Both the position numbers and the translations under genes were made by a program. DNA of 64,000 nt from Octopus vulgaris (Eukaryota), in the NCBI GenBank assembly GCA_951406725.2, contig OX597827.1, positions 50,406,001 to 50,470,000 of the forward strand, in the 5' to 3' direction. Under the pieces are notes generated by a model. The model made no database searches and was not told the origin of the DNA. It was given only the letters and a program-made list of their open reading frames with translations. Positions 22,350-57,923 of this stretch are shown in pieces (within the stretch, counting starts at the first letter, position 1; each line of letters opens with the position of its first letter).

Positions 22350-22705
22350 TTTTTTCCATGGGCGCATGTAAGTATTTCATTTATTTCTATTCGTATTTTC
22401 TACTGACGAGGAAAAAATCTATTATAAGATTAATTCCGAAATTGATTCAATATAGAAATAACGAACATTTAAAAAAAATTCTGTTGGCTAGCTTTCCTCG
22501 ATTTCAGCACAACGTATTTCTGTAGTGGGTATATAATATGTGGAAATTGGCGATTTAAAAGTCTGTTATCAGCATATTGGCATAGAAATAATTTTCTTTT
22601 GCCCTTGTTTATAAGGTGTTTATAATTTTAACCTTAAAGGTATTTTTGTATGCTGCCACTTTTCTTGATGAATTTTTTTCTGTAAAAAGCTTCATCCTAA
22701 TTAGT
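22350..22705 (+). mobile_element. Diverged family G pseudo-LTR
   Basis: Colinear with 57818-58047 plus 58548-58635 (taagtatttcatt..., aaccttaaaggtattttt...). Confidence 0.7.
22397..22458 (+). ncRNA. Type I hammerhead ribozyme
   Basis: tttcta-CTGACGA-ggaa[aatct..agatt]ttcc-GAAA-ttg-att-caat-A-tagaaa; all three stems pair, AUA triplet. Confidence 0.82.
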
Positions 22706-22711
22706 AGTATA

Positions 22712-23060
22712 TAGATAGATAGATAGATAGATAGATAGATAGATAGATAGATAGATAGATAGATAGACAGACAGACAGACAGATAGATAGATAGATAGAT
22801 AGATAGATAGATAGATAGATAGATAGACAGACAGACAGACAGACAGACAGACAAACAGACAGATAGATGGGTAGATAGATAGATAGGTAGATAGATAGAT
22901 AGATAGATAGATAGATAGATAGATAGATAGATAGATAGACAGACTGACATACATACATACATACAGACAGACAGACAGATAGATAGATAGATAGATAGAT
23001 AGATAGATAGATAGATAGATAGATAGATAGATAGATAGATAGATAGATAGATAGATAGAT
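22712..23060. repeat. (GATA)n/(GACA)n compound microsatellite
   Basis: Directly visible. Confidence 0.98.
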
Positions 23061-23284
23061 TAAATATATTCCTATATATTTATACAAATATCTAATCTAT
23101 AAATTTTATGTGGCGTAAACAACAACAGCAGCATCAAGTATGTGTATGCTTAGCAGAATAAGAGAGAGAGAGAGAGAGAGAGAGAGAGAGACAGACAGAC
23201 AGACAGACAGACAGACAGACAGAGATGGGGGAGAGAACACAAAATAAATCAGCATGATTTTAGATCAGAAACTTGACGCAGATT

Positions 23285-24050
23285 ATTATTCAAATTCCTC
23301 CATGGTCGACTTTACATTTCATCATTTTGGGGCCGATAAAATAAGTACCAGTTGATTGCAGGGGTCCTTGTAATCGACTTACCATCTCACCCGAAGTACC
23401 AAAATTAGAAACCATTATCATTATTATGGCAGAATCATTAGCACGCCGGGCGAAATGCTTAGCAGTATTTCATCTGTCGCTACGTTCTGAGTTCAAATTC
23501 TGTCGAGGTCCACTTTGCCTTTTATACTTTCAGGGTCGATGAAATAAGTGTCAGTTATGTATTGGGGTCGATGTAATCGACTAGCCCCCTTCGCCAAAAT
23601 TTCAAGCCTTACCCCTATAGAAGAAGTGATTATTATGATTATTAAGTCGGAGAGCTGGTAGAATCGTTCGCACGCCAGAAAAATTCTTAACGGTATTTCG
23701 TCTGCCGCTACGTTCTGAGTTCAAATTCCGCCGAGGTAGACTTTGCCTTTCATCCTTTCGGGGTCGATTAAATAAGTACCAGTTACGCACTGGGGCCTAT
23801 ATAATCGACTTAATCCGTGTGTCTCTCCTTGTTTGTTCTCTCTGTGTTCAGCCCCTTGTGGGTAGTAAAGAAATAGGCATTTCGTCCGTCTTTACGTTCT
23901 GAGTTCAAATGCCACCGAGGTCGATTTTGCCTTTCATCCTTTCGGGGTCGATAAAATAAGTACCAGTTGAACACTGGGGTCGATCTAATTGACTCATATC
24001 CTTCCCCAAAATTACTGCCCTTGTGGCAAAAATTTGAAACCATTATTATT
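23285..24050 (+). mobile_element. Tandem stack of SINE A copies ending in an A/B composite (23646-24050)
   Basis: Four Meta-like cores; successive copies begin in the (att)n tail of the previous one. Confidence 0.88.
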
Positions 24051-24169
24051 GTTGTTGTTGTTGTTGTTGTTGTTGTTGTTGTCGTTGTCGTCATCGTCGT
24101 TGTTGCTGCCGCTGCTGTTGTTGTTGTTATTTCATATAGGCCTAAACAGATCAAACTGTTGAAAAGAAA

Positions 24170-55078: not shown

Positions 55079-56976
55079 TATATACATATTTACACATACA
55101 TTTCTACTCACACACAAAATGCATACAAACATGTATTTTAAGTTACGTTGTGTTCTTTATAAACATATACAGGCTGCTTCAGAAACCCAAATACCATATA
55201 TGTATGTTCTCTTTCACTTTTAATCATTTGAACGGTTCCTGTAATGAAGGAGCTGGATTCTAACAAAATATACAAAATTCCATTGCTGGAATGTAGATAA
55301 CAAACAAAATCACATTTGAGACTTGGGAAAAGCTTTGTATATTTTTACGGCTCTACTTACAGATTGTGTGTGTAAATTGTGAAATAGCTGATTAATTCTC
55401 TTCCTGAATACCCTAGCTTATCCAGGTTGTATGTATGTATGTATGTATGTATGTATGTATGTATGTGTGTATGTATGTATGCATGTATGTATGTATGCAT
55501 GCTTATATGTGTGCATGCATGTATGTATGCATGCTTATATGTGTGCATGCATGTATGTATGCATGCTTATATGCATGCATGTATGTATGTAAGTCACTGT
55601 TCAGTTTTATTTCAAGATTTCTTGCCAATAGAGAAAGAGCCGGTTTCTAACCTTGATTCAAAACTCTTTCAATGGAATTTCAACATCAATAACAAGGTAT
55701 TTTTGTTTGTATGTATATATATGTGCAAATTTGTATATTTTGTTTTATGCATGTATTCTCATGCATATAGTTGCATATCTAGACATGCTGATAATGGTAA
55801 AGTTCTGGAAAGTTTTACAGATCTTTACAGTTCCAGTGATGGACTGGATCTGTAGTCTTCGAATTAGCTTTCTCCTTTCTGATTTTAAGAAGCCTAATTT
55901 CTCAAGATCGCTATTTAGGCAGTGTGCTACATATCCCTATGTATGTATATATGTATATATGTATATATGTACGTATGTATGTATGTATGTACGTATGTAT
56001 GTATGTATGTATGTATGTATGTACGTATGTATGTATAAAAGTATATATGCATGTTTTTATATATGTGCGTATGTGTTCGTGTGTAAATGAATATATATGC
56101 CTATTAATATATGTTTACATGAATATATTGATATGTGTACCAAGAAAAGTATATAATAGTAGAGTGAAAAACCTCAAAACGGTCTCTGCAAACAGAATAA
56201 TGTGGCTTAAAATCTCACTATTAAAACCTAAAACTCTCTTAAAATCTATACCAGTTCTACTTCTAATTTCTAAAGAGAAATAATACATCGCTATTCAGTT
56301 TTTAAGGATACCCTAAAGAACTTGACATGCCTTACGGAATATATTTTCAGGTTGAAAGCTAAAACATTCTTTATGATTTGAAATGGTTCACTGTAAAATT
56401 TGCAAATTCTTAAAAAGATGGAAAGAAAATCAACCAGTTTTGTACACGTGAGAGTCTAGAAATTATTAACGCCGATTCAAATATTTCCTTAAATTCCAAA
56501 CATAAGATTATTTTGAACTCTAAATATTTATACTTCTTTCGAACTACTTTCTCTTTTTGAAATGTGAAAATGAAAAATTGTCTTCTCTTTTATAAGATAA
56601 ATGGTCATCAGGATCATTAATACAATACTAATATAATCAAAACGTGTTATAATTACAAAGGTTGTTGACTATCTTTTCAATTGATCAGTTGATTGATTAA
56701 CTTGAACCATGAATGTACTCTAAATATATATATAAAATGGATGTCAGACTACAATGCACAAATACATATATAAATCCCATTGTTTATGCCTCATATATAT
56801 ATATATATATATTCATCACACACAACATGGACAAAACTTCTTAAGAAAAAATATTTATTCAAATAAGTAAAACATAATATCATGAATAGCGATAGTGAAA
56901 CCGGTCGATATATTAAAGATTATATTAAAACTATCTAAGTGTGCGTATTTTCCTTTTTTAATTTCTTATATATATA

Positions 56977-57506
56977 CTAGCAGTATCGCCCGGCGTTGCT
57001 CGGGTTTGTAAGGGAAATAACTATATAAGCATTTTTAGTGAGTTATAGCAAAAAAATACCAAAAAAATGCTTAAAAATGGAATAAAAATGATGGTAATGT
57101 TGGTGTCTTCAAGCCATGAAGTCGTTGTTCTAAAAGAACGCTGGTCTCCTTGACAATACTTTACGACGTTGATTTCCTTACACTCCCTTCCCCACAGCTT
57201 CACGAGGGAGGGAAGAAGGGGGAGAAGCAAACAGGTGCAGGTGTGACCATGGACGCCAACTCCGCCGCCATCGACACACGGAAAATTATGCATAAAAATG
57301 GAATAAAAAATGATGTTAAATTATTTTTAAAATCGTAGACCCATCGTAGACGCGCGCTAATACCCAGAAGGGCTCGATATGAATCATGACTATAAGATAC
57401 CCGAATTTGGTTAAACTGTACCGCAAAATGTGGGAGTAGTTAGGAATCTAAATCGAAGGGGACAGACACTCACACAACTACAGTTTTATATATATAGATA
57501 TATAGA
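56977..57506 (-). mobile_element. Non-autonomous Helitron (left arm)
   Basis: TCTATAT... start; 3' hairpin cccgagcaacgccggg then ctgCTAG|T. Confidence 0.85.
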
Positions 57507-57632
57507 TATTTACAAGATAAGGGCAGAAGAAAAATTCTAATGCCAGATACGCCGAAACAAAAAATTTGTCGATAACCATTAAATTTATGCGTCTCGAGAT
57601 AAACCGATAGAAATCTCTAAAAAATTCGTTAT

Positions 57633-57692
57633 TACCGTATTGGTCTCAATTTCGGGGTTAATTCACAAGAAATTTTCCCCTCTTCAGCGGCA
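57633..57692 (-). ncRNA. Type I hammerhead ribozyme (family G)
   Basis: tgccg-CTGAAGA-gggg..cccc-GAAA-ttg-agac-caat-A-cggta. Confidence 0.85.
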
Positions 57693-57864
57693 CATACGCG
57701 AGATATAAATGAAATACTTATTCATACCCACGGAAGAAGCAAGCACCAAGTCCCGAGCAGACTTAAGTACCCCAAATATATCCAAATAGAAAAATCTTCG
57801 GCGCGCCTCGAGACACCCTTCTTCCGTGGGTATGAATAAGTATTTCATTTATATCTCGCGTATG

Positions 57865-57923
57865 TGCCGCTGAAGAGGGGAAAATTTCTTGTGAATTAAC
57901 CCCGAAATTGGACTAATACGGTA
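57865..57923 (+). ncRNA. Type I hammerhead ribozyme (family G)
   Basis: tgccg-CTGAAGA-gggg..cccc-GAAA-ttg-gac-taat-A-cggta. Confidence 0.82.

Follow-up and report, generated by a model that had tools for sequence, protein, structure and literature searches.

A type I hammerhead motif with paired helix changes in a high-copy dispersed repeat of Octopus vulgaris, probably of Penelope-like origin

We analysed 64,000 nt of the Octopus vulgaris genome (GenBank assembly GCA_951406725.2, contig OX597827.1, positions 50,406,001 to 50,470,000 of the forward strand; hereafter the window, numbered from its first letter), in which a dispersed repeat, here called family G, carries a hammerhead ribozyme motif. 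The window has a GC content of 29-43%, is full of dispersed repeats and is dense in microsatellites (97 rows). A scan of both strands for a generic type I hammerhead structure returned five matches, three of them strong (22397-22458 and 57864-57924 on the forward strand, 57633-57692 on the reverse strand), and no strong match appeared in any of 30 locally shuffled windows. A fourth copy is 5'-truncated and begins inside helix II. The motifs, grouped into lineages A and B, and the copies that bear them are laid out as follows.

13084..13303, forward strand: truncated family G copy that begins within helix II, retaining just the 3' half of the hammerhead, between two (TA)n tracts
22314..22710, forward strand: diverged family G copy bearing the lineage A hammerhead, delimited by alignments and ending at a (TAGA)n tract
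22391..22465, forward strand: lineage A hammerhead; helix I of 6 bp, a 2x2 loop and 3-5 bp; core CTGACGA/GAAA; helix II of 4 bp, an AA/AA loop and a 5-bp hairpin
22441-22451, forward strand: palindrome of the lineage A helix III, with the predicted cut after A22452
57627..57698, reverse strand: lineage B hammerhead, left arm, with a 12-nt helix III segment, a non-palindromic centre and a predicted cut after 57638
57860..57929, forward strand: lineage B hammerhead, right arm, with a predicted cut after A57918

The copy at 22397-22458 reads, in order, TTTCTA CTGACGA GGAA..TTCC GAA ATTGATTCAAT A TAGAAA on the forward strand, and both 57865-57923 (forward) and 57633-57692 (reverse) read TGCCG CTGAAGA GGGG..CCCC GAA ..AT A CGGTA. 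The stem I, stem II and core letters listed in the initial annotation of this DNA are all present. Each of the three intact copies has the three-helix layout with helix I open and the CUGANGA and GAAA core with U16.1-H17, with only N7 differing, and helices I and II covary. The same annotation had described an ATTG/CAAT stem III as kept throughout, which holds except at 57.9 kb, where ATTG/TAAT is read, and a long stem II loop, which turned out to be a 2x2 AA/AA internal loop with a further 5-bp hairpin beyond it. Helices I (6 bp) and II (4 bp) have canonical lengths and both end in internal loops; helix II is capped by its AA/AA loop and the second hairpin, with 27-28 nt between the core halves. 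The U.U/A.A mismatches of helix I and the AA/AA loop of helix II are identical in both lineages, and because these internal loops are unchanged, they suggest a tertiary contact between the two helices. The predicted cleavage site is defined by an AUA triplet, which is found in some natural hammerheads.

The two 57-kb copies are arms of one palindrome of about 1.6 kb (56966-58557), their motifs facing away from each other, and the window therefore holds two lineages, not three. Accordingly, the covariation that had been claimed between distant copies is real, but it compares two lineages, the 57.6- and 57.9-kb motifs being palindrome arms. Over 19 pairs in helices I, II, IIb and III, the 22.4-kb and 57.6-kb copies show six two-sided changes, two one-sided changes and 11 unchanged pairs. 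Pairing is kept in both lineages at 18 of these 19 pairs, and the first four helix III pairs are invariant. The 3' flanks of the two lineages differ at 46 of 123 aligned sites, the core only at N7. When the same 14 changes were placed at random in simulation, at least six paired double changes arose with P of 1e-5 to 4e-4, varying with transition bias. Without the inner hairpin, which was dropped in a second test as its register depends on the alignment, five of 14 pairs are double-changed (P 3e-5 to 1e-3). All the paired changes represent one evolutionary comparison and not many. A separate pair count found two-sided changes in 5/20 pairs, a level reached in 3 of 500 shuffles, with 0-1 in slid controls; this control is weak, since it uses three related rows and a structure derived from the same rows. 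The paired changes, the simulated P values and a core free of listed variants across contigs (see below) support the earlier proposal that family G carries a hammerhead motif under selection for RNA structure between subfamilies.

Paired changes of this kind could also arise if the fold were kept for some function besides cleavage, for example to bind the protein of the element or to position reverse transcription, or if palindrome repair at the DNA level produced them. Five of the six double changes are double transitions, the easiest kind, and in the Poseidon element, ribozyme mutants inserted normally in vitro and RNA-seq gave no reads terminating at the cleavage position (PMC11167929). We nonetheless consider these explanations very improbable, given that all catalytic bases are kept in both lineages and in the aligned contigs, that the two strands of helix I enclose a three-way junction and are 50 nt apart, and that even with 95% transitions the simulated P remains under about 1e-3.

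Part of the 57.8-kb stretch was found in 20 of 24 listed public runs. Four of the runs, carrying three organism labels, were compared using contigs at 80% likeness, with differences listed from 4%. The aligned contigs (634, 1357, 325 and 57 per run) report presence only, not copy number, strand or expression. Family G is a large, high-copy dispersed repeat, and contig loose ends upstream show it running 5' beyond the window copies. Among 29 listed variant places in the four runs, none fell on the 13 core bases and none on GGGG/CCCC. The majority T at 57864 (80-88%) brings helix I to the 6 bp found in the 22-kb copy, and the majority C at 57914 (99.7-100% of summed depth in all four runs) restores helix III, the T of TAAT at 57.9 kb being private to the right arm. 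Because these majority letters restore pairing, we regard the right arm as a decayed copy, in which private changes at the two positions weaken helices I and III. Variants 57866A and 57867T (3-25%, at equal or near-equal depths) convert G.U to A-U and C-G to U.G, so that pairing is kept. The minor variants at 57919 and 57920 are unphaseable, and one of them would break a pair unless matched. A third form was seen in one loose end (core CTGACGA, helix I TTATTG, helix II GGAG); its GGAG is intermediate between GGAA and GGGG, and the 13-kb copy has CTCT on the other side of helix II. Separately, contig depth at 58004-58025 was several-fold above that of the hammerhead in DNA runs, which suggests that this short 3' segment is common to a larger set of truncated or related copies.

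The palindrome at 57 kb combines family G with an insert that we take to be Helitron-like.

56977..57506, reverse strand: inverted copy of the presumed Helitron-like insert
57507..57823, reverse strand: family G body, left (inverted) arm, reaching further 5' than the right arm
57824..58047, forward strand: family G body, right arm, 5'-truncated
58048..58547, forward strand: presumed Helitron-like insert with TC...CTAG ends, interrupting family G
58548..58650, forward strand: family G 3' tail, present in the right arm only, then (TA)n

The arms are 96.9% identical, in the family G part and the Helitron-like part alike, bar one 60-column block near 57050-57100, which differs completely between them. 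Loose ends behind 58048 continue directly into the family G tail in all four runs, and the 500-bp insert is therefore private to this locus. The palindrome may have originated either as a Penelope-type insertion with a passenger element or as a local inverted duplication after insertion. A transcript spanning it is predicted to fold into one hairpin (-238 kcal/mol) in which the ribozyme is buried, and on read-through this locus would therefore not be expected to cleave in place. Joints to the opposite strand, from 5774x/57763 to 57818/57822, follow from the inverted repeat in the reference itself and do not count as independent inversions.

Each of the three loci ends at a (TA)n or (TAGA)n tract, although this is a weak criterion in a window where microsatellites are very dense. 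The 5' cut-off points differ among the copies, and the 57-kb locus shows an adjacent copy in inverted orientation together with a one-sided tail; 5' truncation and an adjacent inverted copy are exemplified by the 13-kb copy and by the 57-kb palindrome with its diverging arms. Penelope-like elements (PLEs) are described as targeting (TA)n, as truncated at the 5' end, and as having an adjacent inverted copy and a single-sided tail (PMC8557442). Because the family G copies match this description, we propose a Penelope-like origin. Family G might instead consist of dispersed monomers of a non-LTR retrozyme (LTR, long terminal repeat). Retrozymes of this type are short elements repeated in tandem, whose successive hammerheads yield small circular RNAs. 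The AT-rich, non-coding unit of family G, with its 300-400 bp and a type I hammerhead of canonical helix lengths, resembles those in PMC7229834. A 2026 preprint derives retrozymes from pseudo-long terminal repeats (pLTRs) and reports dispersed monomers. We consider this origin improbable: family G copies do not stand head to tail anywhere in the window, and they end in a defined tail and a microsatellite while being cut at different 5' points. The loose ends at 58048 also enter the tail, though their 30 letters are too short to show what comes after.

Helix III is formed by an odd palindrome of 11 nt, ATTGA-T-TCAAT in lineage A (22441-22451) and ATTGG-A-CCAAT in the majority form of lineage B, and the 13-kb copy also has 5-bp helix III arms. 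The fifth pair changes from A-U in lineage A to G-C in the lineage B majority across a 1-nt centre; as it spans a single base, it could form only in a duplex of two molecules and not in a hairpin. As a monomer hairpin, a 4-bp helix III would cost +1.8 kcal/mol, whereas the self-duplexes were predicted at -6.7 and -8.9 kcal/mol. For the three copies, helix III of the monomer is predicted to pair at 0.03, 0.2 and 0.0. When two copies of the 22.4-kb motif are folded without constraints, the result is the active double hammerhead (-32.9 vs. -26.6 kcal/mol for two monomers). On these models, the dimer mode is more likely than the monomer mode.

Taken together, we somewhat favour the view that family G represents conserved type I hammerheads in a high-copy dispersed repeat, likely the terminal (pLTR or 3'-end) region of a Penelope-like retrotransposon, which would likely cleave after AUA mainly as a two-molecule double hammerhead. 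In an active parent element, two copies of the motif, in tandem pLTRs or in two RNAs, would join through their 11-nt palindromes, giving a helix III of 10 bp interrupted by a single mismatch at its centre. Helices I (6 bp) and II (4 bp) would dock through the invariant internal loops, and cleavage would trim the parent element's RNA. Selection would act on the parent elements, with the window copies as their decaying products.

Several results weigh against this interpretation. With respect to the parent element, no Penelope-like reverse transcriptase or GIY-YIG domain was found in ten open reading frames of the window, in eight short frames upstream of the 22-kb copy or in a six-frame motif scan; this search covered the 64-kb window, whose family G copies are short and lack their 5' parts. 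The window shows no pair of tandem pLTRs, and the one-sided tail, at about 100 bp, is longer than the 30-40 bp described for PLEs. Rfam gave no hammerhead match at the family G copies, either with E up to 1 over the whole window or with E up to 10 in local searches, so the comparison with its models that had been proposed lent no support; the long helix II probably defeats these models. The contig variants carry no phase information, have passed an 80% likeness filter and are listed from a 4% threshold upwards. In Poseidon of Anolis, cleavage in vitro needed the element's protein and was dispensable for insertion (PMC11167929).

Other points concern the dimer. Any hairpin stem can dimerise, and dimer energetics were not significant against scramble controls: helix III interiors scrambled at random gave an equal dimer gain in 57/300 cases for the 22.4-kb copy, 300/300 for the 57-kb right arm and 115/300 for the left arm. 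The fifth-pair argument rests on one change: complementarity would be expected by chance with a probability of about 0.27 in either lineage and about 0.07 in the two together. In the left-arm copy, the centre is not palindromic and the monomer fold lies only about 1 kcal/mol above its minimum. An alternative, in line with the design given in the initial annotation, is a hammerhead that is active as a monomer and stabilised by tertiary contact, at the end of an element of this kind. It would have a 4-bp helix III and a 3-4-nt loop, held by an interaction of the helix I and helix II internal loops. In its favour, scrambling does not mark out the dimer, the helix lengths of 6 and 4 bp are canonical (PMC4209133), the internal loops are unchanged while the 3' flanks have diverged, and in two of three copies the active monomer fold lies 1.1-2.4 kcal/mol above the minimum. 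We nevertheless hold a monomer to be unlikely, though less so than the other alternatives, in view of the low predicted monomer pairing of helix III and the fifth pair, which is complementary in both lineages and impossible in a hairpin. Variants with a 12-nt loop are also rare in family G; one of them, with a G inserted behind 57909, accounts for 52 of 51648 depth in run X1.

The double hammerhead that we favour has close relatives among known PLE ribozymes. PLE hammerheads are described as minimal and dimer-type, with palindromic positions 15.2-16.2 and loop 3, in families "full of covariations" and with motif pairs on opposite strands 100-700 bp apart (PMC4209133); palindromic helix III and dimer cleavage have likewise been described for PLEs (PMC4209133; PMC6765202). 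Family G resembles these motifs in its palindrome, its compensatory changes, its mostly solo truncated copies and its opposite-strand pairs, and differs in having helices of 6 and 4 bp with invariant internal loops. Further parallels come from the Hydra-clade PLEs, whose hammerheads have a 3-4-bp palindromic helix III, with 9-10-nt versions, and (TA)n targets (PMC8557442 File S2). In these elements, too, the motif is type I, lies near the 3' end and has a palindromic helix III with a 1-3-nt centre. Penelope-13_HM has an inverted 5'-truncated copy, and one Hydra-clade family comes from an octopus (PMC8557442 File S2). In every Hydra-clade row, however, the base of helix III reads AC..GT and loop 2 is short and terminal, and an extra base usually precedes helix II, whereas family G has AT..AT (the AUA site), an 11-nt palindrome, no extra base and a longer spacing between core halves. 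The initial annotation had set family G apart from dimer-dependent PLE hammerheads by a closed stem III, a long stem II loop and the AUA site. The first of these is not well supported, given the near-perfect palindrome, the poor monomer pairing and the Hydra-clade parallels, while the AUA site and the extended helix II do differ from the tabulated Hydra-clade motifs.

Non-LTR retrozyme hammerheads of coral, mussel and axolotl share with family G a 6-bp helix I with a bulged extension, a 4-bp helix II and an AT-rich, non-coding 300-400-bp unit (PMC7229834). They differ in their head-to-tail arrays, terminal loop 2 and 1-2-bp helix III; no tandem array was seen in the window. Five of six family G motifs had no match in the supplement of PMC8557442, where line breaks could hide matches, and the sixth matched an unrelated coding stretch. 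The supplement of PMC13282606, which contains no sequence library, did not hold the family G motifs; PLEs cover 6.83% of an octopus genome according to the same study. Family G was not described in the literature that we searched on octopus PLE hammerheads or ribozymes and on natural AUA type I motifs, a search that lay outside most subscription papers and outside Repbase and Dfam; Lunse 2017 may describe similar variants.

Family G carries what is probably a known, Penelope-like kind of ribozyme motif in a somewhat unusual shape, and does not indicate a new kind of system. More tentatively, it could represent an undescribed natural architecture that joins an AUA site to an 11-nt palindromic helix III and to helices of 6 and 4 bp, these two docking via a pair of internal loops in place of a terminal loop 2; the helix III palindrome might allow switching between a weak monomer and a fast, tertiary-stabilised dimer. 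Such an architecture would run through a very large family of invertebrate repeats, escape both Rfam and the PLE descriptors published so far, and bridge minimal Penelope-type and canonical retrozyme hammerheads; we see this as possible but doubtful. The hammerheads of PLEs cleave slowly in vitro (PMC4209133, PMC11167929), one system is protein-dependent, and the ribozyme there is dispensable for insertion. The stepwise changes from GGAA/TTCC through GGAG to GGGG/CCCC, together with the longer palindrome, offer a handy test of monomer against dimer and of the internal-loop contact. Rfam and descriptors with a 7-17-nt spacer limit undercount such motifs.

Upstream of the 22-kb copy, an open frame at 22136-22280 on the reverse strand with an HGQY motif resembles the C-terminal region of R4/Dong non-LTR elements; Pfam gave no match in the frames upstream of this copy, and an 88-aa antisense frame at 22136-22399 had a protein atlas score below 0.8. 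Short inverted repeats with similar GCTGCT/AGCAGC arms lie at 63242-63351 and at 22279-22301. The second, immediately upstream of the 22-kb copy, may be a fragment of a different element.

A decayed mariner transposase (PF01359, E 2e-13) occupies 6451-7758, and a 98%-identical inverted piece of 249 bp lies at 3616-3863. For a mariner fragment of the window, the nearest protein atlas cluster is mostly molluscan, judged on three labelled members. An Rfam Hammerhead_1 match at 6980-7044 (E 0.12) falls inside this transposase frame and is regarded as a chance match. A hammerhead pattern scan of viral contigs gave no matches, and three pattern matches in metagenome contigs, all without helix I and without likeness to the window, are likewise attributed to chance. 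A very abundant SINE-like (short interspersed element-like) family, with many partial tandem copies, is found at 4676-5322, 10529-10754, 16106-16340, 23289-24048, 44397-44791, 60916-61071 and 62959-63082.

The window also holds other hammerhead-like motifs. A minimal Penelope-type hammerhead with an ACGT palindrome and a GUU site lies at 17423-17457 on the forward strand, with a decayed copy near 33640-33680 on the reverse strand; both belong to a separate, (TA)n-flanked family. A second palindrome, at 14598-14942 between AT-rich tracts, carries a hammerhead at 14706-14780 on the reverse strand, with a long extended helix II, an 8-nt palindromic helix III and a GUA site. Its other arm retains only the 3' half of the motif, a layout like that of the 57-kb locus. 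Finally, the segment 17620-17780 on the forward strand could be a retrozyme-like unit: it contains a hammerhead-like motif (17668-17727) with an AUA site, a 4-bp helix III and a weak helix II with a short duplication, set inside a long, rod-like hairpin (-60.8 kcal/mol).

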